Positions 1-32,677 of a stretch of 47,368 bases of DNA are shown here, in pieces. Every line of letters starts with the position of its first letter. Position 1 is the stretch's first letter. The notes below the pieces were generated by a model. It was not told the DNA's origin. It searched no databases and saw nothing but the letters and a program-made list of their open reading frames with translations. The stretch lies in NCBI GenBank assembly GCA_018649885.1, contig JABIHA010000068.1:62001-109368 (forward strand), read 5' to 3'. The DNA is from Bacteriovoracaceae bacterium. GTDB taxonomy: Bacteria; Bdellovibrionota; Bacteriovoracia; Bacteriovoracales; Bacteriovoracaceae. Made by a program: the position numbers and the translations under genes.

Positions 1-533
1 GTATCAAATACAAAGACATCCATATTTGCACCACACTTTTCTTTTATCCTATTAACATATGTCCTTCTTTTGCAAGACCTTCCATCGAGAGACGATGGAT
101 CAAGCTCTCTAAAGGAAGTGCTTATATCAATCCAAACCTCTAACTTAGAAAAGCTTTTTTTGATATTTTTAGCTTGCCCACAAAACATATCAAAATAATA
201 ATTTTTATCACAACTGATCATGTCGGTATCAACTGAAGATACATACTTGTTATTTTTTTTCTGTTTTTTCTCTATCTTAATTTCTTTTTTAAGGTTTTTA
301 TTGGGATTAGGATACAAACCTATATTTGGATCAAAGCATTGGTCACCATAAGGGATACAAACATTTTGTGCCAACTTCTCACTGTAAACAGGCTCATCAC
401 CATTGAAATGCTTCTCAAGTAATCCCATTTCATCAGGCATTAAAAACCACACTTCAATATGCTTAGGAATTGCAAAACTAGAAAAGCTAACAATAGAGCA
501 GGTTATAAGCACAAAAAATTTCAATAAATGCAT
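1..533 (-). CDS. Secreted hypothetical protein, possibly vWA-like; 3' end runs off the window
   Basis: Not in the ORF track; translated by hand from ATG at 533: MHLLKFFVLITCSIVSFSSFAIPKHIEVWF... with no stop to base 1. Has a signal peptide, several Cys, and LEVWIDISTS, a MIDAS-like DxSxS motif after a beta strand. Starts 10 bp after the XRE gene stop. Confidence 0.75.
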   Translation of the reverse strand, partial: MHLLKFFVLITCSIVSFSSFAIPKHIEVWFLMPDEMGLLEKHFNGDEPVYSEKLAQNVCIPYGDQCFDPNIGLYPNPNKNLKKEIKIEKKQKKNNKYVSSVDTDMISCDKNYYFDMFCGQAKNIKKSFSKLEVWIDISTSFRELDPSSLDGRSCKRRTYVNRIKEKCGANMDVFVFD

Positions 534-543
534 TGTGCAATTT

Positions 544-1146
544 TTAGAATTCCACACCCTTTTGCCTAAAATATCTAAATAGTGAATTACCAACATCAAC
601 AACTAAATCCTTTCCTTCTACATCCAGTTCAAGAAAATCACTTAGGTAAGCCTTTTGCCTTGGAGTAAGTCTTTCCAGCTTATCCCTTAGAGTAGTTGGA
701 TTATTTCTAGCTCCATCATCGGCCCTAAAGGGAATGCTTCTGGTCTTCCCACCAATTTTCACCTTGGCGGTTGTAGTTCGTTCAGCAGTTCCAAGCGAAG
801 AGAAGACATCATTAAACTCATCTTCCTCCTCTTCATTATCGGAAGATGGAGGTGGTTCCATAGGACCATCTTTATAGAACTGAATGAGTCTTTTAAATTG
901 CTCGGTGGAATCCTCTTCGATGAAATCAATAATCTCGTGCAACGGAATATTTAACCTTGCAACAATCTTTGCAATGAATTGCTCGTCGAGTTCCCTGGTT
1001 TTCCTGTTCAAAAAGCGCGACATGGTGGAAATTCCCACCCCAACCAAATTGGCCAAGTCCTTTTGTGAAAGGGCTCCTCGTACTTGCATATACTTACGAA
1101 TTACACCTAGAAAATCGTCTAAATAATCTCTATTGAAGCGAACCAT
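544..1146 (-). CDS. XRE-family helix-turn-helix transcriptional regulator with C-terminal extension
   Basis: LSQKDLANLVGVGISTMSRFLNRK is a typical HTH_3 motif; CAGGAGG Shine-Dalgarno upstream; acidic linker then a C-terminal domain. Confidence 0.9.
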   Translation of the reverse strand: MVRFNRDYLDDFLGVIRKYMQVRGALSQKDLANLVGVGISTMSRFLNRKTRELDEQFIAKIVARLNIPLHEIIDFIEEDSTEQFKRLIQFYKDGPMEPPPSSDNEEEEDEFNDVFSSLGTAERTTTAKVKIGGKTRSIPFRADDGARNNPTTLRDKLERLTPRQKAYLSDFLELDVEGKDLVVDVGNSLFRYFRQKGVEF

Positions 1147-1164
1147 GTTAACCTCCTGAATTGC

Positions 1165-1191
1165 TTGTCGGAACGAAATTATATTTCTTGA
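1165..1191 (-). promoter_or_regulatory. Putative sigma28 (FliA)-type promoter of the XRE gene
   Basis: Minus strand TCAA-N15-TCCGACAA versus consensus TAAA-N15-GCCGATAA, just upstream of the RBS. Confidence 0.6.
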
Positions 1192-1215
1192 TGCAATTTA
1201 TTTTCTTGACGCAAT
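1184..1215. repeat. Two 14-bp direct repeats, candidate operators
   Basis: TTTCTTGATGCAAT (1184-1197) and TTTCTTGACGCAAT (1202-1215), 18-bp period, each with a TTG-N3-CAA dyad and each overlapping one -35 box. Confidence 0.6.
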
Positions 1216-1234
1216 GGGTCAGACTTGCTATTCT
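1206..1234 (+). promoter_or_regulatory. sigma70-type promoter with extended -10
   Basis: TTGACG-17 nt-TATTCT, with TG at the extended -10 position. Confidence 0.75.
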
Positions 1235-1267
1235 GGGATTGTTGACACGCAGCCTAGGAGGCCACAA

Positions 1268-1696
1268 GTGAAAAGTACAACACTCAAGCACTTCTCAACT
1301 CAACCCCTAGTAAAGCCACACGAGGTCTACATGACCGTTCAATGTGAAGCTCTAAGTGATTGTATTCTTAAGGGAAAGATTATTTCCGGTTCCCTCCTCT
1401 CTCGCACAACTTTTTCGCGGGTGACTTTCGAAGGCTGCGTGTTCTTCGCCTCTGAAATAGAAGGATGTGAATTTGCAGGATGCAACTTTGTAAATTGTGA
1501 AATCCAATTTACTAACATCCAAGGATCTACTTTTGAAGCATGCAATTTTGAAAATTGCGATTGGGAATTATCAGAAGTTAAAAATTGCAATTTCTCAAGT
1601 ACTGGAATGGATTCCACTACTACTATTACCCTAGGAAAGGGAACAAACAGCATGGAAGCCTGCTTTATCGGCAACGGAATTGCTCAAGCAGCATAA
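1268..1696 (+). CDS. Pentapeptide-repeat protein
   Basis: Five-residue periodicity (TTFSR VTFEG CVFFA SEIEG CEFAG CNFVN...). Start moved to GTG 1268 because AGGAGG precedes it and ATG 1214 lies inside the promoter. Confidence 0.85.
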   Translation: MKSTTLKHFSTQPLVKPHEVYMTVQCEALSDCILKGKIISGSLLSRTTFSRVTFEGCVFFASEIEGCEFAGCNFVNCEIQFTNIQGSTFEACNFENCDWELSEVKNCNFSSTGMDSTTTITLGKGTNSMEACFIGNGIAQAA

Positions 1697-1758
1697 TCAA
1701 CCAAGATGGTTGCGGGCTGGAAGCCCAGGGCAAGAAGCCCTTTGGTCATGGAGACCAG

Positions 1759-1922
1759 CAAGGATGAAGAGAATTGAGCAGGAAGCTCACCCAAGGATGA
1801 ACAAAATTGAGCAAGAAGCTCACCAAGGATGAACAAAATTAAGCAAGAAGCTCACCAAGGATGAAGAGAATTGAGCAGGAAGCTCAGCCAAGGATGAAGA
1901 AAATTGAGCAGGAGGCTCACCC
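1759..1922 (+). repeat. Five tandem 32-33-bp units
   Basis: Units start at 1759, 1792, 1824, 1856 and 1889; consensus CAAGGATGAASARAATTGAGCARGAAGCTCAC(C). Confidence 0.95.
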
Positions 1923-2118
1923 GCATGCGGGCACTAAATAATGAAAAAGATTAAAAATATACCCGGAACAAGGACACCGCAAACTACTCAACCTACCTCA
2001 AGGAGTGGACTTCCGGATTCAAATCAATCACGCGAGGTGGGTAACATATCTAAAACCTGATTAAGTGCAAGGATGTGCTCAGGTCTGATCAAACCCTGGA
2101 GAATTTCTCTACGGTCTT

Positions 2119-2149
2119 AAAGCCCTCGGTTATGCCGGGGTTTTCCTTT
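2119..2149 (+). terminator. Rho-independent terminator
   Basis: AAAGCCCTCGGT-TAT-GCCGGGGTTTT hairpin followed by CCTTT. Confidence 0.8.
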
Positions 2150-2340
2150 GATTTCGACTAAACAAATTTTATTTAGATATCATGCTGACTTAATTCACAT
2201 CCTGCCACTGGATTTCAACGCATCTGCAACATAAATGAGTGTAATTATTACTCTCTCACCAGCAATTCGTTTAAGTTTTAGATTCCTTATGAAATAAGCA
2301 AAAAACAACAAATAAAGAAGACTAATTGGGAGCCAACTAC

Positions 2341-5262
2341 TTGAACAAGCTTTGCCGACTATCTCTTTTATGGACCTTGCTCATATTTTCAATTGGAGCA
2401 AAGGCCACAATCCCATTGTTTACTGAGGTCGAAAACGAGCTCTCCTACTGGAGCGAGCAGATTTGCAAGCAAGATTCATTTCCAGCAAATGTGGAGTGGA
2501 TTAAATACCATGTAGCAGACCCCGTTCCGCAGTACCAAGTTGAGAGATTCTTCACATACCTTGAAAAGCTCAATAACCTAGTCACGAAAGAGGTCAATAA
2601 ACCTATTGAAAAGAGGCTTTTACCCAGTACAGAATTTCTCTCCTACATTCAGGGCAATATTGATTATGAGGATTACAAATTTGCCTATGAGACTGGAATC
2701 GAAACCTTTATCGATCTTCCTCAAACCCTAGGTGAACAACTAGATATTATTTTAGGACATTTAATTGAAGTCTATGGTCCCAGCCAATTTTCGTTGGCCA
2801 TTAGCCAAGTTTCAGAGCTTGTCACTTTAAGGGGGACTTCAACTAACCACAGAAAGTATGTGGCGGTAATGAATTACTATGAGCTATTAGAAAGAGGGAT
2901 CAAATGTCTTAGTAAACAAGATATTCGCTATGATCAGTTTTATTTTATTCGAGGCGCAAGCAGATTAAACTTATTTAAAATCAACATATACCCAGATGCC
3001 CTTACAGATGATCTCAGAAATACACTCTCTGTGGAGCCTAGAATAAAGATAAGTACCAAAAGTAGTGACGGTTCCACAGAAAACCAAATGATAGGAAAAA
3101 TCAAAATAGGAACGGCCTCAATTCATAGGGCCGAGACTTTCGGTTACCTTTCACAATACGGATCATTTTCATATGAAGCTGCACTTCTGATGCTACATAA
3201 AAAAATTATGGACCGAAGAAAACAAAGAGGTGAATACGTAACCTATGCAGGGGAGTACACTGAAAAAAGAGATCTTTATAATTACAATATGGCCAAGTAC
3301 GACCAAAAATTAACACTACGGCTCGTAAAAAGAGGATATCTCTCCCAACTATTAATTCACTCCTATGTTTTTAAACTTCTCCATCGAAACCCGGCAACTA
3401 AAAGAGTCATGCTTCCTGTAAACGGTTGCTACAATGATTATATTCAAAAACAAGAAGGTTTTTTAGGATTTAAATTTAAGAAACAAAGACCTGCCCACCC
3501 AGGAAAACTTCTTACCCTTGAATCCCTTGCTAATGATTTAACAGAATTTTCCATAGAGAAAAGAAAAACCGGTAATCAAAATGATTCCAATGAAAATGAT
3601 ATTTTAGGTGAGAAGACCTGGGAAATTAGAAAGAGATACCACTCTGATATAGTTGCAACTGCTTACAAAATGCACCAGCTTAAAAACTATATTAAAAAGG
3701 CCAATAAGTTGTGGTGGTGGATCTTTGCAACCCGGCAATGCATAAACCCTTCAGAAACCCCATCTAGAGATGATATTTGCGCCACAGTCTATGAACAAAG
3801 AAAGATTGCTCTTGATAAGCTAAAAGCCGATATCGAACTTTTAAAAGAATCCCTCTCCCTTGCTGGCTCAATTTATCCAGAGCTCACAATTAAAAACCAT
3901 GCAGAAGTTGAACTATACAACCAGCTCGTTAACTACGAGCTAAGTGAATATACTATTGACTACACTAAGTTTACTGAAAGTAAGCTACTCACAAAAGGTT
4001 TAGCTGAATCTGAAATTCATAGAATTGAAGAAAATGGTGAAAAAATCTATCAATACTATAGTGTGGAACACTTCGTCCCATCACACAAACTCAAACAAAT
4101 AGAAGACACACTGACAAAAGCCATCCGTACTAATCAAAGACAAATGTCAGTTGTTTGTTCAATGAGCTCGCTTAAGGAACTCAAAAAACTCACATCAAGT
4201 ACAATGGTCTACTACAATAGAGTTGATCCAGAAATTAAATCTTATATCCAAAATAATCTTAAGGATCTGAGCAAATACCAAAAGAAAGCTTTAATGAAGA
4301 GAATTGATAACGCTTTTGAAGGTGCAGTTTCTGCAAAACAGAAATCAGACAAAACCAAAGAAGGCGCATACGCAGTAGGAGTTTTGGCCGGCTCAGCTGT
4401 ATTAATTGGAGGGACACTATTTTTTGCACCTCCCGCTGCACTTGTGGCACTTGCAGGTATTGCACTAGCTGGAAGTGAATCATATTATTACTTCAAGCAT
4501 ATTGTGCCTAAATATGAATACGCCAAAAGAGAATACCAAGCTTCAAACTCACTTGATTTGAGGCATATATTTCACGATATAGATGCAACCTATATGGATA
4601 AATTGCTATCGGACCCAGTTCCTCTAGGAAGCCATGATCGGTATGCCGAAATGGTGAAAGAGCATAAGTGGGAGAAAGCTTTTTATTACGGAGGCCTTGC
4701 CATTGATGTTTTTGTTCCAGGCCTCAAGGGCGGAACAAAGGCCTTTGCAAAAACAGTAAAGGCAGCAAGGTACTCAATGCTTTTACTGAGATCCACCAGA
4801 CTTGGGAGCAGGGTCTACAAGACAGCAAGAATCTCACTCAGCGGACAAAAATGGATCTCACTAAGACGCTTTTGGATTGCTTCAGGTATATCCTCAATTG
4901 CCCTTATGAAAGGGCACACAAGTGAAGAAGATTCGAAAAAGGCATATTACGCCACTTCTGCACATATGCTCGATAATTTTCCCATCGAAGATTGGATAAA
5001 ATATAAAATGAAATTTTTAGAGCCGATTGTAAAGACAAATGGATTTGCATATTTATTCGAAAAAGATGAAGCATACGAAATTCAAAAGTATTCTGAAATG
5101 AACAGTGCACAATTTAGAGAGAAATTACAAAGTATCATGAGGGAATTCCAAACCCAGGCAGGAATTAATTACACGATTAAGTCTCAAAGTGGACAAGTGC
5201 AAGTAATTTCTTATGATGACCTCATTGTAACAGAAACGAATATTAGGGGAGAGAATGACTAA
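2341..5262 (+). CDS. Large secreted hypothetical protein with internal hydrophobic Gly/Ala hairpin
   Basis: ~970-aa ORF; GGGAG precedes TTG 2341 (track start 2326); signal peptide ...SIGAKA; hydrophobic segment AVGVLAGSAVLIGGTLFFAPPAALVALAGIALAG. Confidence 0.8.
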   Translation: MNKLCRLSLLWTLLIFSIGAKATIPLFTEVENELSYWSEQICKQDSFPANVEWIKYHVADPVPQYQVERFFTYLEKLNNLVTKEVNKPIEKRLLPSTEFLSYIQGNIDYEDYKFAYETGIETFIDLPQTLGEQLDIILGHLIEVYGPSQFSLAISQVSELVTLRGTSTNHRKYVAVMNYYELLERGIKCLSKQDIRYDQFYFIRGASRLNLFKINIYPDALTDDLRNTLSVEPRIKISTKSSDGSTENQMIGKIKIGTASIHRAETFGYLSQYGSFSYEAALLMLHKKIMDRRKQRGEYVTYAGEYTEKRDLYNYNMAKYDQKLTLRLVKRGYLSQLLIHSYVFKLLHRNPATKRVMLPVNGCYNDYIQKQEGFLGFKFKKQRPAHPGKLLTLESLANDLTEFSIEKRKTGNQNDSNENDILGEKTWEIRKRYHSDIVATAYKMHQLKNYIKKANKLWWWIFATRQCINPSETPSRDDICATVYEQRKIALDKLKADIELLKESLSLAGSIYPELTIKNHAEVELYNQLVNYELSEYTIDYTKFTESKLLTKGLAESEIHRIEENGEKIYQYYSVEHFVPSHKLKQIEDTLTKAIRTNQRQMSVVCSMSSLKELKKLTSSTMVYYNRVDPEIKSYIQNNLKDLSKYQKKALMKRIDNAFEGAVSAKQKSDKTKEGAYAVGVLAGSAVLIGGTLFFAPPAALVALAGIALAGSESYYYFKHIVPKYEYAKREYQASNSLDLRHIFHDIDATYMDKLLSDPVPLGSHDRYAEMVKEHKWEKAFYYGGLAIDVFVPGLKGGTKAFAKTVKAARYSMLLLRSTRLGSRVYKTARISLSGQKWISLRRFWIASGISSIALMKGHTSEEDSKKAYYATSAHMLDNFPIEDWIKYKMKFLEPIVKTNGFAYLFEKDEAYEIQKYSEMNSAQFREKLQSIMREFQTQAGINYTIKSQSGQVQVISYDDLIVTETNIRGEND

Positions 5263-7924
5263 ATTTCTACGGGCCATGATATTATGCATGTGTTGCTCAC
5301 TATTCTTTTCCAATGTCTATGCGACTCCGGTGTCAGCATTAAGACATCTTGATGAAGTTGTATCTGCATTTAAGCATGTAGATAATGTCGATAGTTTTTC
5401 TGAATTTTTAAAAGTGGGAAGAAGATCGGGCAGAATAGTCAATTTGCCAGAGCATATTGAAACTTTTGCTGATCTTGCTAGATACATAGACGATATTGCT
5501 GAAACCGGCTCAGATGCTCCAAAAGTCAAACAAGCAAAAAAAATGCTCGAAGAAATTGCCATAGAAATGGGAGAAAACCCAAATGCATGGAGAAAAATGG
5601 TTAGCTCACGGGCCATTGAAAGACAACTTGCACGCTCGAGCGAAGTTCTCGCCGAAGCTTCAGACACTTCAAGAAGTAATAGATGGGGAAGGAAAAAAGG
5701 TAGAGGAGCAAGACCTGCTGCTGATGTGGCCAGGAGAGCTCTTTCTTCACCAGAAGATTCTATTATTACTAAATTTTTAGATGCTGCAACTGATGGCTCT
5801 CTTTCAAGAAGAGGACTAGTAGTTACCCCCAATACAAAATTTTCAAAAGAAGTGTTAAGCTCCATGCTAGATTTGGCTGCACGCCAAAGATATACCATAG
5901 AAGAAACACTGGAAGCTTTTACCAACCCAGGAAAACTAAAACTTCTCATTCAAAAAGGATTTGAGGCCAAAAGGGTCAGAATCCTAAAAGCAGCTGGCGA
6001 TATTCCCCATGGAAATCCCCACAGGGCAACTCTTCTTGCTAAGCTAGATGAACTTGCATCGGCGGAGTCTGCAGCTCTGAGAAGAGTTGACGAATTTCTT
6101 CCAAGCTCCCCTGATAAACTGGCGGAAGAATTTGGAAGTGGCCTTTCTGCTCTCAGGAAAAAAATGGGTCTTGAAAAGCGTGGAGCAAGAAGAGTACTCG
6201 GAAGGGCCGGCCAAAAAGTTGTCCACAGCGTTTTAAGAGTTGATAGAAGAGCTGCTGAGATTATAACTGAACTCGTTGAGGGAACTCAAAAGAGAATGGT
6301 TCAAAGCTTACAAGGGCGAAAACTTGTAACTCGGGCAGTAGATGGAAGTCTTGAAACAGTTGAGCTTACAGAAAGTAATATTAAGAAAATAGTAAAAACT
6401 CTTGAAGGTGCAGAAGATGCACAGCTAGATAAGTTTTTAAGAATGACTGATGCTGACTTAGGAGGTCTTCCTCTTGCCAAAAGACTTGAGTATCTATCAA
6501 GCGTAGAAGATCTTATCACTGAGTATCGCCATGGCATGCAGCAAACATTCGAAACACCTATTGATGAATTAGTTCAATATTCTAAAAATCTAAAAAGAAC
6601 GCTTGAAGAGATGAGCTCACTTAGGTCAGCTTCAAGTCACAGCATCGCTCCCTCACAAGTTGATGAGTTATTTGATGGAAGTGGAAGGTGGGCCGGTTAT
6701 CTTCACCAAATGCAAAGAAGATCAGAAGTGGTTGATGAAATCAGTGGAGCTATTTTTTCTCCTTCAAAGCTAACTTCAAAAGTCATGCGCCAAAAGCACG
6801 TCTCAAGAATAATCGAAAATAATTGGATATTAAGAGAGCTCTATGAACCATTAGAGTCTGCAGCGAGTAGGGTTGATGATGTTGGTGTAATATACGACGA
6901 CACTGTAGCCGTTTTAAAAAATGGTGTACTTGAAAATCCAGGATCCTATGGCGACATTGTGAGAAAGTTTGGAAGCCAGCTTTCTTTGCGCGAACTAAAG
7001 GCCCTTAAAACTCAGCAGTACTCACTCGCAGGAATGAGAAGATCTGCAATCGACATGGTACATCCAGAGACTCTTGCAAATGGAGTCAGAAGATTTAGAC
7101 TAAAATCTGTGGATGTTTTAATACTCGGAACGGCTTTTAGCTTTATTGGATACTTTACAAAACTATATTTCATCAATCCCAACGCCGCTAGCCTGGTTGA
7201 AATTATTGTCGACTACAAAAAGAAATTCTTTGGAATGGAAGCAGAAACTTTTGAGCTGGCCATGATGGTTGATATGAATGACAGGATTGTTCGTGATATT
7301 ATTTCAAATGGTCAACATAAACTAGATGAAAGAGTTTCTGATATCGATCTATTAACAACAGAAATTCGTGATCTTAAAATGAGTTTGATTCCACTTAAAA
7401 CAGAAAAAGCCAAAATTTACCTTGCCTCTCCTGAAGTTAAAAAAATTGTTGAAAGCGGTAGTGGTGAAGCCGGAGAGCTTAGTGAATTAGTCTTTATAAT
7501 TGATGATATTGACAGGCAACTTGCAGCGAGAGAAAAACTCCTTCAAGAAAAATCTGATATTATGTATGCAGAGCTTGCTGGTATCGGATCATACTTTCAT
7601 CAATACTCCGAATATTGGTCCAAATATGCTCAATACCTTGCTACTAAAGGTCTTATTGCTATAAAAGTAGACCTCAACCAAAGTACAGGCGTCTATAAAT
7701 CCATAAGACTTGAATACAGTGTCGACTACCAAGAAGAGCCCATCATCTATAATTACGATGTTGAATTGCACAAAAGATTTATAAGCCTTTTGGAAATAAA
7801 TAATGATTTCTCAATGGGGATCGTCAGAACAAAATTAAATTGGGCAGTTTTAATTTCAGAAATGGATCCAAGTATTTCAGACAAGGATCTAATAAAGCAG
7901 CTCACTATTCGATATGACCAATAA
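5255..7924 (+). CDS. Large exported hypothetical helical protein with one internal transmembrane segment
   Basis: 889 aa; GGGGAG RBS; 8-bp overlap with the upstream gene; signal peptide ...SNVYA; TM-like VLILGTAFSFIGYFTKLYFI followed by coiled-coil-like sequence. Confidence 0.8.
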   Translation: MTKFLRAMILCMCCSLFFSNVYATPVSALRHLDEVVSAFKHVDNVDSFSEFLKVGRRSGRIVNLPEHIETFADLARYIDDIAETGSDAPKVKQAKKMLEEIAIEMGENPNAWRKMVSSRAIERQLARSSEVLAEASDTSRSNRWGRKKGRGARPAADVARRALSSPEDSIITKFLDAATDGSLSRRGLVVTPNTKFSKEVLSSMLDLAARQRYTIEETLEAFTNPGKLKLLIQKGFEAKRVRILKAAGDIPHGNPHRATLLAKLDELASAESAALRRVDEFLPSSPDKLAEEFGSGLSALRKKMGLEKRGARRVLGRAGQKVVHSVLRVDRRAAEIITELVEGTQKRMVQSLQGRKLVTRAVDGSLETVELTESNIKKIVKTLEGAEDAQLDKFLRMTDADLGGLPLAKRLEYLSSVEDLITEYRHGMQQTFETPIDELVQYSKNLKRTLEEMSSLRSASSHSIAPSQVDELFDGSGRWAGYLHQMQRRSEVVDEISGAIFSPSKLTSKVMRQKHVSRIIENNWILRELYEPLESAASRVDDVGVIYDDTVAVLKNGVLENPGSYGDIVRKFGSQLSLRELKALKTQQYSLAGMRRSAIDMVHPETLANGVRRFRLKSVDVLILGTAFSFIGYFTKLYFINPNAASLVEIIVDYKKKFFGMEAETFELAMMVDMNDRIVRDIISNGQHKLDERVSDIDLLTTEIRDLKMSLIPLKTEKAKIYLASPEVKKIVESGSGEAGELSELVFIIDDIDRQLAAREKLLQEKSDIMYAELAGIGSYFHQYSEYWSKYAQYLATKGLIAIKVDLNQSTGVYKSIRLEYSVDYQEEPIIYNYDVELHKRFISLLEINNDFSMGIVRTKLNWAVLISEMDPSISDKDLIKQLTIRYDQ

Positions 7925-18395: not shown

Positions 18396-18953
18396 CTAAA
18401 CTGTTAAAAGCTCATCCTCTTTAAGTTTTACTGTTTCATCTACTCTCTTTATATAGCCATCAGTAAAATCTTGAATTTCTTTTTGGAGTTTTTTTGAATC
18501 ATCCTCAGAGATCGACTTACCTTTTTCAGCTTTTTTTACTTTTTCGTTTTGATCTCTTCTAAGATTTCTAATTTGAACTTTTGTATCTTCGCCCATTTTT
18601 TTCACATGCTTAACAAGATCTTTTCTCTTTTCTTCTGTCAAAGCTGGAAAGGGTATTCTTATAAGATTCCCATCATTAGAAGGAGTCAAACCAAGGTTTG
18701 CCCCCAGGATAGCTTTTTCAATTTCTGAGATTAAATTTTTATCAAAAGGCTGTATTTGTAAAAGTCTTGCTTCTGGAGTGCTTATTTGTCCAACTTGCTT
18801 AACTGGAGTTGGATTTCCATAGTAATCCACACTTACACCATCAAGGACATTTGCAGATGCTCTTCCAGTTCTAACTTTGGTGAGTTGTTGCCTAAGTCCA
18901 TTAATTGCACTATCGCTTGAATCATCCATTTCAGATTTAATTTCATCAATCAT
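18396..18953 (-). CDS. frr: Ribosome recycling factor
   Basis: VRTGRAS, VDYYG, LTEEKRKDL. Confidence 0.97.
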   Translation of the reverse strand: MIDEIKSEMDDSSDSAINGLRQQLTKVRTGRASANVLDGVSVDYYGNPTPVKQVGQISTPEARLLQIQPFDKNLISEIEKAILGANLGLTPSNDGNLIRIPFPALTEEKRKDLVKHVKKMGEDTKVQIRNLRRDQNEKVKKAEKGKSISEDDSKKLQKEIQDFTDGYIKRVDETVKLKEDELLTV

Positions 18954-31903: not shown

Positions 31904-32677
31904 ATGAATTTAAATGTTTTTACAAAAATGATCATGACCTTTGTATTAGCAATGGGAATGTTGTCTTCTAACTTAGAAGCAAAAGGCAGAAAAGCGCGGC
32001 CAGGTAAAAGAGGCCCAAGTCACCGTCCCGCAAGACCTCACCGGCCTTCAAGACCTAGTCATCGTCCTGCAAGACCACGTCCATCAAGACCGAGTCACCG
32101 TCCTGCAAGACCTCACCGTCCTTCAAGACCACATCACCGTCCTGCAAGACCACACCGTCCTTCAAGACCACATCACCGTCCTGCAAGAACACACCGTCCT
32201 TCAAGACCACATCACCGTCCTGCAAGAAACCATCACCACAGAAAACATGTGAGAGGTCCATGGAGAAGAGTTGCACACTCAAGGCCAGGAAGACATCACA
32301 GAAATTTCAGAGTAATTGGTCATCACCATGCAAGATATGCAAGGCCTCATTACTACTGGAGAAATGTACCTAGACACCACTACTACAGAAGCTGGTTAAT
32401 GTGGTCAGTAGACGTAAATATCTACGTCAATGGTTACTATGCTTTTAATAACTACCCTTACTATGTATTTAACGGTTACAGGCATCGTTACTCATCAGTA
32501 GATCTATGTGATTACGATCTAGTTGATAGCTACAGTGATACTATAGAGAAAACTTTTTACGGCCTTTCTTGTAAAAGAGCATATGACAAATGTGCCTTTG
32601 AAAGAACTATCTTTAACGAAAGTGAAAGAGACTACCGTTACTTTTGTGCAGAAAAATTTGACAACTCATACCTATAA
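31904..32677 (+). CDS. Secreted His/Arg/Pro-repeat protein with C-terminal four-Cys domain
   Basis: AAGGAG RBS, signal peptide ...NLEA, HRPARPHRPSRP(S/H) repeats, Tyr-rich C-terminus. Confidence 0.85.
   Translation: MNLNVFTKMIMTFVLAMGMLSSNLEAKGRKARPGKRGPSHRPARPHRPSRPSHRPARPRPSRPSHRPARPHRPSRPHHRPARPHRPSRPHHRPARTHRPSRPHHRPARNHHHRKHVRGPWRRVAHSRPGRHHRNFRVIGHHHARYARPHYYWRNVPRHHYYRSWLMWSVDVNIYVNGYYAFNNYPYYVFNGYRHRYSSVDLCDYDLVDSYSDTIEKTFYGLSCKRAYDKCAFERTIFNESERDYRYFCAEKFDNSYL
32021..32227 (+). repeat. In-frame coding tandem repeat, 39-bp units (one of 36 bp)
   Basis: Units at 32021, 32060, 32096, 32135, 32174 and a partial one at 32213; CACCGTCCTGCAAGACCWCACCGTCCTTCAAGACCACAT. Confidence 0.95.

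Follow-up and report, generated by a model that had tools for sequence, protein, structure and literature searches.

A divergent XRE regulator and pentapeptide-repeat gene pair conserved in the Bacteriovoracaceae, with a putative CsrA-binding repeat array downstream in one genome

The divergent pairing of an XRE regulator gene with a pentapeptide-repeat gene is a real switch and a family-wide trait of the Bacteriovoracaceae, present at 79 of 80 loci from genomes and 76 of 80 from metagenomes, with all five misses cut by contig ends. We analysed it in a stretch of 47,368 nucleotides from a Bacteriovoracaceae bacterium (assembly GCA_018649885.1, contig JABIHA010000068.1, positions 62,001 to 109,368), referred to below as the window. 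An earlier sequence-only reading of this DNA had proposed that the XRE protein gates a CsrA-sequestering RNA, or sponge, and links it to the predatory cycle. The synteny that it predicted is borne out for the two genes, but not for the GGA-rich 3' region, to which no relative has a comparable array. The strong support for the switch comes from its promoter and operator core, conserved in 79 of 80 loci, and not from single-genome statistics, which are modest; promoter-like sites on their own stand out weakly from chance (14 observed, 8.4 +/- 2.8 expected). The best explanation, to which we give an even chance, is a local, autoregulated XRE repressor switch joined to a 3' RNA with CsrA sites, the array of which would probably titrate CsrA. 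As that reading had supposed, no previous description of the module was found in the literature covered, most subscription journals being outside that coverage.

Of 24 family genomes 19 yielded the regulator, against none of 16 others; by profile it turned up in 23 of 26 members of the family and, outside it, gave a single weak match, to the HTH alone, among 124 genomes. The XRE profile gave 54 matches at E <= 1e-10 among 1.84 billion representatives. A single copy of the pentapeptide gene is present in 129 of 150 Bacteriovoracaceae genomes, nearly all named relatives come from Bacteriovoracaceae or Halobacteriovoraceae records, and a single-protein metagenome scan returned no close relatives, the best identity elsewhere being about 62%. 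Co-loss of the module with csrA or fliA was considered and rejected, since module-less genomes keep csrA (over cut-off) in 19 of 20 cases and fliA likewise in 19 of 20.

The XRE gene (544-1146, minus strand, 200 aa) lies behind the Shine-Dalgarno sequence AGGAGG at 1152-1157 of the same strand. The pentapeptide gene (1268-1696, plus strand, 142 aa) most likely starts at GTG 1268, behind AGGAGG at 1256-1261 within a weak hairpin (fold z +0.9, not significant), rather than at ATG 1214, and with this start the gap between the two genes is exactly the 121 bp originally given. The intergenic core, alignable in 79 of 80 loci, contains on the minus strand the sigma28/FliA-type promoter that had been proposed, TCAAG-N15-CCGACA at 1166-1191 (-35 TCAAG at 1191-1187, -10 CCGACA at 1171-1166). 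The sigma28 motif recurs in 71 of 79 loci, with a spacer of 15 in 65, and closely resembles the attack-phase consensus of Bdellovibrio bacteriovorus, given for FliA as TTAAG-N16-CCGATA in the available text of PMC3627812; judged by the pattern TTAAG/TAAAG-N15-16-CCGATA and by the fliA gene in the genome (273 bits against a cut-off of 190), the promoter belongs to the FliA-dependent type. A clear sigma28 promoter is missing in four relatives (L046, L047, L051 and L070). On the plus strand lies a sigma70-type promoter, TTGACG (1206-1211)-N17-TG-n-TATTCT (1229-1234), spanning 1206-1234. Its -10 box is kept in 76 of 79 loci, with a spacer of 17 in 75, but the description of it as an extended -10 promoter does not carry over to the family, as the TG occurs in only 17 of the 76 relatives.

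Conservation beyond the promoter hexamers takes the form of a dyad, ATTKC-N5-GMAAT. Two 14-bp repeats had been reported at 1184-1197 and 1202-1215, with a period of 18 bp and one over each -35 box; their positions stand, but these direct repeats are better read as palindromic operators, accompanied by a weaker, putative third site over the sigma28 -10, both points having been overlooked. Operator-like site B, the pseudo-palindrome overlying the sigma28 -35 (1183-1197, PWM score 15.3 of a maximum 16.8), has arm positions C5, G11, A13 and A14 invariant in 79 of 79 loci; operator-like site C (1201-1215, PWM 13.0), the centre of which is the sigma70 -35, keeps GCAA after TTGAC in 73-77 of 79 loci per position; and the weaker operator-like site A (1160-1174, PWM 11.0) has a score partly confounded with the sigma28 -10 box that it overlies. 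In L046, L047 and L051 site B has changed in its central 5 bp, as have the sigma28 boxes, while the palindrome arms are kept, which marks the arms as the conserved unit. These three loci form a subclade that has no sigma28 promoter and near-perfect operator palindromes, and they offer a natural test case.

Scanning the whole genome with the operator PWM gave 791 matches and nine close pairs, of which only two are intergenic, both at this locus; as the sole intergenic tandem cluster of sites lies here, XRE control looks local. A genome-wide XRE regulon was rejected on the same data, 139 of the 791 matches being intergenic, which is about what the 16% non-coding share would give, with no second intergenic tandem, though single sites may exist. 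Judged from the position of the sites and their co-conservation with the regulator gene, XRE very probably binds the palindromes, and it is likely to act there as a repressor and not as an activator.

The regulator carries an N-terminal HTH of the XRE/Cro-C1 class (Pfam HTH_26 at 9e-6, and HTH_3). Alignment and structural model divide it into the HTH (about 1-93), an acidic disordered linker and, at about 153-196, a conserved helical domain at the C-terminus, and the recognition region is near-invariant in the alignment (Q28, K29, S40, T41, S43 and R44). The protein is family-specific, with a C-terminal domain that has no named homologue; this domain being helical, and no S24 peptidase match being found in Pfam up to E 0.1, it does not belong to the self-cleaving LexA/cI type. 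A predicted complex of the XRE and pentapeptide proteins scored 0.27 against a mark of 0.32, which speaks neither for nor against an interaction. In one genome (G162:C14:20307-20849) the XRE orthologue gives two separate matches, one to the HTH part and one to the C-terminal part. With the autoregulated XRE switches represented by the C-proteins of restriction systems, SinR, lambda cI and DdrO, the module has in common the XRE HTH, a conserved C-terminal domain distinct from it, and several dyads spread over divergent promoters; it differs from them in the family-specific nature of that domain, the absence of an S24 peptidase match, the sigma28/sigma70 promoter pair, the pentapeptide partner and the finding of no wider regulon.

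The pentapeptide protein has the expected five-residue repeats forming a right-handed beta-helix (Pfam Pentapeptide_4, 4e-12); it is cysteine-rich and is modelled as a single such helix with disordered ends (pLDDT 83), the tail closing in Ala-Ala. This degron-like end, overlooked earlier, is conserved: Ala-Ala closes the protein in 46 of 77 loci from genomes and 34 of 65 from metagenomes, compared with 46 among the 4427 ORFs of this genome, and Ala or Ala-Cys is the C-terminus in 73 of 77 genome loci. Terminal Ala-Ala is necessary but not sufficient in E. coli ClpXP degrons (PMC10862746), and its presence here suggests that ClpXP probably degrades the protein and makes it short-lived.

Downstream of the pentapeptide gene, on the plus strand, folding predicts four short hairpins (1698-1758), two with GGA loops (at 1719 and 1750, P(unpaired) 1.0 for each GGA) and two with AAGA loops. 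They are followed at 1759-1921 by five tandem copies of a 32-bp unit (32-33 nt each, TRF score 252), made up of CAAGGAUG and the hairpin UGAGC-A(G/A)GAA-GCUCA. The GGA-hairpin array first described is thus present, but two of its five units, like two of the 5' hairpins, have AAGA and not GGA in the loop. Beyond it lie a conserved RNA motif (1990-2043, with a stem at 1991-1999/2034-2042 and a large loop starting AAGGA, as indicated by covariation and an RNA model), a second GGA hairpin with an AAGGAU loop (2056-2083, by folding) and a terminator-like hairpin with a U tail (2124-2149), which is the only terminator-like site on the plus strand within 1-3500, in agreement with the single terminator claimed. 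Nine array sites fit the Campylobacter jejuni CsrA motif (C/A)A(A/T)GGA (PMC4894983). Five loop GGA sites have P(unpaired) of at least 0.84. It is quite probable that CsrA would bind the array. Counting against the best explanation, the CAAGGAUG sites are predicted to be partly paired (0.03-0.54), and the fold of the array as a whole is no more stable than that of shuffled sequence (z -1.36). Plain GGA is not enriched (17 against 12.9 +/- 2.4 in shuffles, a count reached by 63 of 1000); [AC]AGGA/A[CT]GGA is enriched (12 against 4.4 +/- 2.0, 2 of 1000 shuffles), by a margin inflated because the tandem copies are not independent. A coding role for the array was rejected, as stops break all three plus-strand frames.

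Seawater RNA run X1 contains an identical contig of 521 nt spanning 1268-1788 and another spanning 1759-1885, and runs X2 and X3, from other studies, contain pieces of the CDS. The proposed transcript running from CDS into array gains support from the first contig, which bridges both, and the X1 contigs fit one CDS-array transcript, while themselves revealing neither strand, start or ends, level, life phase nor a single transcript. The bridging contig favours a 3' tail over a stand-alone RNA, for which the only promoter-like site found is a 9/12 match at 1668-1697. The lack of a contig over the XRE gene or 1886-2149 carries no evidential weight.

No copies of the array were found elsewhere in this genome, and no relative has a comparable one, the window having nine motifs in the first 230 nt against a maximum of five (72 genome and 58 metagenome loci). 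The 3' regions of the 74 complete loci fall into 27 with a stem closing an AHGGA-starting loop, 10 with plain GGA hairpins, 30 with a peptide ORF and seven with none of these, so that 37 of 74 relatives (the 30 with the peptide and the seven others) have no GGA RNA under these classes. The classes follow the XRE tree, itself a quick version, in which the window is placed with the stem-bearing loci, but not strongly supported there. Among 37 rows picked by sequence alone (36 loci and the window), 27 pair over at least 6 bp with the downstream arm of the same row, compared with 13.5% when arms are crossed between rows. MAFFT left the 3' arms unaligned in 28 rows, and covariation was scored on 16 of the 27 stem-bearing rows, of similar loop length; here 89% of cells are paired against 68% when shuffled, with double changes at six of eight pairs, these pair counts leaning towards the stem because the rows were cut around it, and pair-type measures in the same 16 rows show no excess over shuffles. 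An RNA model built without the window recovers 1990-2043 at E 4.5e-5 and matches 22 of 60 family genomes, 20 of the matches lying directly behind the pentapeptide gene, although its training rows may overlap those genomes. In most stem-bearing relatives a counterpart of the 2056-2083 hairpin follows the stem (by eye). A pseudoknot between 1963-1968 and 2011-2016 is a weakly supported possibility (own-pair score 14.8 against 12.4 +/- 2.5 for cross pairs). Rfam gave no match to the RNA, the best being RsmY at 18.3 bits against a cut-off of 57. The array is best described as the product of a tandem expansion, placed ahead of an older RNA motif with two sites, and the expansion is not conserved in the family.

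Two features of these 3' regions may be recorded in their own right. The ORF that replaces the GGA RNA in one clade (L058, L067 and L102 among them; 30 of 74 loci) encodes a conserved, hydrophobic peptide of 26 aa with its own ribosome site, and this peptide was absent from the genome of the window when sought there. A C-rich single-stranded stretch (CCCUACC-like), seen by eye just before the terminator in many loci from L027 to L106 and in all 3' classes, could be an anti-Shine-Dalgarno seed.

The genome has a single-copy csrA (E 5e-25), as the sponge proposal requires, lying between flgL and fliW; the gene upstream of flgL we take to be flgK. No activator of the UvrY/GacA type scored over its cut-off in this 92% complete genome (best NF007018, 57.5 against 280, over the receiver part only), which agrees with the suggestion that the switch works without one. 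Overlooked earlier was that this CsrA, of 76 aa, is of the FliW type, with fliW adjoining csrA and with the C-terminal extension and Asn55 that are described for FliW-bound CsrA (PMC13407953); FliW normally does the CsrA-controlling job that a decoy RNA would do. By eye, GGA hairpins occur in six of seven flagellin leaders, and one leader in this genome (G000:C35) shares with the array hairpin the AGGAA loop and four of the five stem pairs, the leader's minimum-energy fold being one without the AGGAA hairpin. Intergenic ANGGA hairpins are mildly enriched (0.0054 against 0.0018-0.0049 for eight control loops).

Several other repeats and GGA clusters were noted in the same genome. At G000:C72:29640-29745 on the plus strand (L117:2140-2247) about six GGA sites form a compact cluster that ends in a GGCC-AAGGAU-GGCC hairpin and U tail. 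The cluster follows a weak FliA-like motif and two small lipoprotein-like genes; it is a candidate second sponge or 3' element, and similar clusters stand behind similar genes in L125, L127 and L128. An intergenic tandem repeat of about 29 bp in about 17 copies, mostly with AUGGA, adjoins an HNH-like ORF on the opposite strand (G000:C62:11450-11950; L119:1450-1950), and an apparently non-coding, GGAGGA-rich repeat of about 11 nt lies near 18610-18675 on the minus strand of G000:C19.

In the switch that we favour, the FliA-type promoter would transcribe the XRE gene, and XRE dimers would occupy sites B and C, 18 bp apart, together with the weaker site A, turning the opposite sigma70 promoter off and at the same time limiting XRE's own synthesis. 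When XRE falls, the plus-strand transcript would deliver a short-lived pentapeptide protein with a ClpXP-type tail and a 3' RNA with CsrA sites. In about half of the family this tail would hold two to four sites, while in this genome it would have grown by tandem duplication to about 13, and the expanded array would probably titrate the FliW-type CsrA away from the flagellin leaders. That such titration matters in vivo we put at a little under an even chance. As the conserved purpose of the switch the sponge fails, with no comparable array in relatives and the peptide ORF in its place in 30 of 74; it is plausible as a lineage-specific add-on, and the full chain, in which XRE gates a predation-linked sponge, is possible for this lineage and is not a family-wide function.

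It is somewhat doubtful that the switch follows the attack/growth cycle. The same promoter consensus serves the FliA attack-phase regulon of B. bacteriovorus, where FliA drives two regulators too, but these are annotated in the available text of PMC3627812 as MerR (Bd0931, 930 bp) and NtrC (Bd1891), not XRE. As XRE orthologues they were rejected because annotations and length misfit, the comparison being by description only. Outside the family, the genomes sampled did not yield the module, B. bacteriovorus being outside the sequence search, and so the attack-phase link is one of analogy only. Published work implicates CsrA in predation by that species, and little is understood of how CsrA is controlled there (PMC13443453). 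A more elaborate version strikes us as unlikely: FliW and a dedicated multi-site RNA decoy would both control CsrA in a delayed feedback loop, FliA would act through XRE to repress the pentapeptide-decoy transcript, freed CsrA would repress flagellin translation, and a fall of FliA inside prey would reset the circuit, the array being a CsrB-like sponge that arose de novo by amplification of the two-site motif.

By anatomy the RNA would be a CsrB-type decoy, though by Rfam or UvrY control it is no member of the CsrB/Rsm family. Like CsrB/CsrC and RsmX/Y/Z of the Gammaproteobacteria, it carries numerous ANGGA motifs, some in short hairpins and some in single-stranded linkers, and ends in an intrinsic terminator, in a genome with csrA; unlike them, it would form part of the 3' region of an mRNA, has no Rfam match and no UvrY/GacA found beside it, meets a FliW-type CsrA and is under predicted XRE-repressor control. 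The C. jejuni flaA mRNA is comparable as an mRNA-borne CsrA antagonist (putative here) in a FliW-bearing cell with the (C/A)A(A/T)GGA motif, but there the sites are a pair of hairpins in the leader of a CsrA target (PMC4894983, in the text available), whereas here they are amplified 3' of a non-flagellar gene. The flgL-csrA-fliW order, the CsrA extension and Asn55, and the GGA-bearing flagellin leaders recall the CsrA-FliW-flagellin partner switch of Bacillus subtilis, C. jejuni and Geobacter, for which the available portions of the cited sources report no CsrB-type RNAs. According to a 2020 review, joint action of FliW and sRNAs on CsrA in any species was still to be determined (PMC7652899), and a second calls the two mechanisms mutually exclusive (PMC7366521). 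The locus offers a concrete RNA, protein and target set for testing such co-control, a small form of the RNA being present in cultured relatives; its novelty is limited in that C. jejuni flaA mRNA is already known to titrate CsrA beside FliW. Apart from the sponge, the circuit itself is nearly family-wide, its operator is defined, and the structured RNA motif that goes with it is new.

The alternative that survives best, though we consider it rather unlikely, is that the GGA sites act in cis, with CsrA on the 3' tail governing how stable the pentapeptide mRNA is or how it decays, the array then being a slippage expansion of that element with no effect in trans. The conserved element holds only two to four sites, GGA hairpin clusters also stand behind unrelated genes (G000:C72, L125, L127 and L128), and eight of 30 intergenic ANGGA hairpins lie only 3' of a gene, all of which would suit this view; about 13 sites at 13-19 nt spacing exceed the needs of one mRNA end, however, and as few as two sites can suffice for an abundant mRNA to titrate CsrA (PMC4894983).

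Less likely still is a stress switch unrelated to predation, in which XRE restrains a Qnr/MfpA-like topoisomerase protector or growth-arrest factor that proteolysis clears, the 3' cargo (RNA or 26-aa peptide) being secondary. The degron-like end of the pentapeptide protein and the swappable 3' cargo speak for the stress switch, as do the likeness of the HTH to SinR, C-protein, DdrO and HipB-like folds (all at E > 0.01; DdrO, C-proteins and HipB being the relevant ones) and that of the pentapeptide protein to MfpA, EfsQnr and AlbG. The latter fold is common to all pentapeptide proteins, however, and with identities of only 10-17% the modelled likeness to Qnr/MfpA would hold at fold level only; moreover, no operator clusters were found at other genes, and the conserved FliA promoter would be left unexplained.

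It is quite improbable that the array is a neutral tandem repeat containing GGA by chance. The 90% likeness of its units marks the expansion as recent, and this, its restriction to one genome, the degenerate AAGA loops and the other intergenic repeats at C62 and C19 speak for a neutral origin. Against neutrality, the array precedes the conserved, covarying AHGGA motif, every unit puts GGA in a loop, and GGA is strand-biased, 17 on the plus strand to two on the minus. That another factor binds the sites, or that XRE activates the plus-strand promoter much as C-proteins and lambda cI activate from adjacent sites, is the least probable reading, given that the centre of site C is the sigma70 -35 and that the sites stand beside this gene only.

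Elsewhere in the window, two large overlapping plus-strand ORFs (2326-5262 and 5255-7924; 978 and 889 aa) have N-terminal hydrophobic leaders and match no Pfam family over cut-off, and a 39-bp tandem repeat of 5.5 copies lies at 32015-32237 within an ORF of 266 aa.
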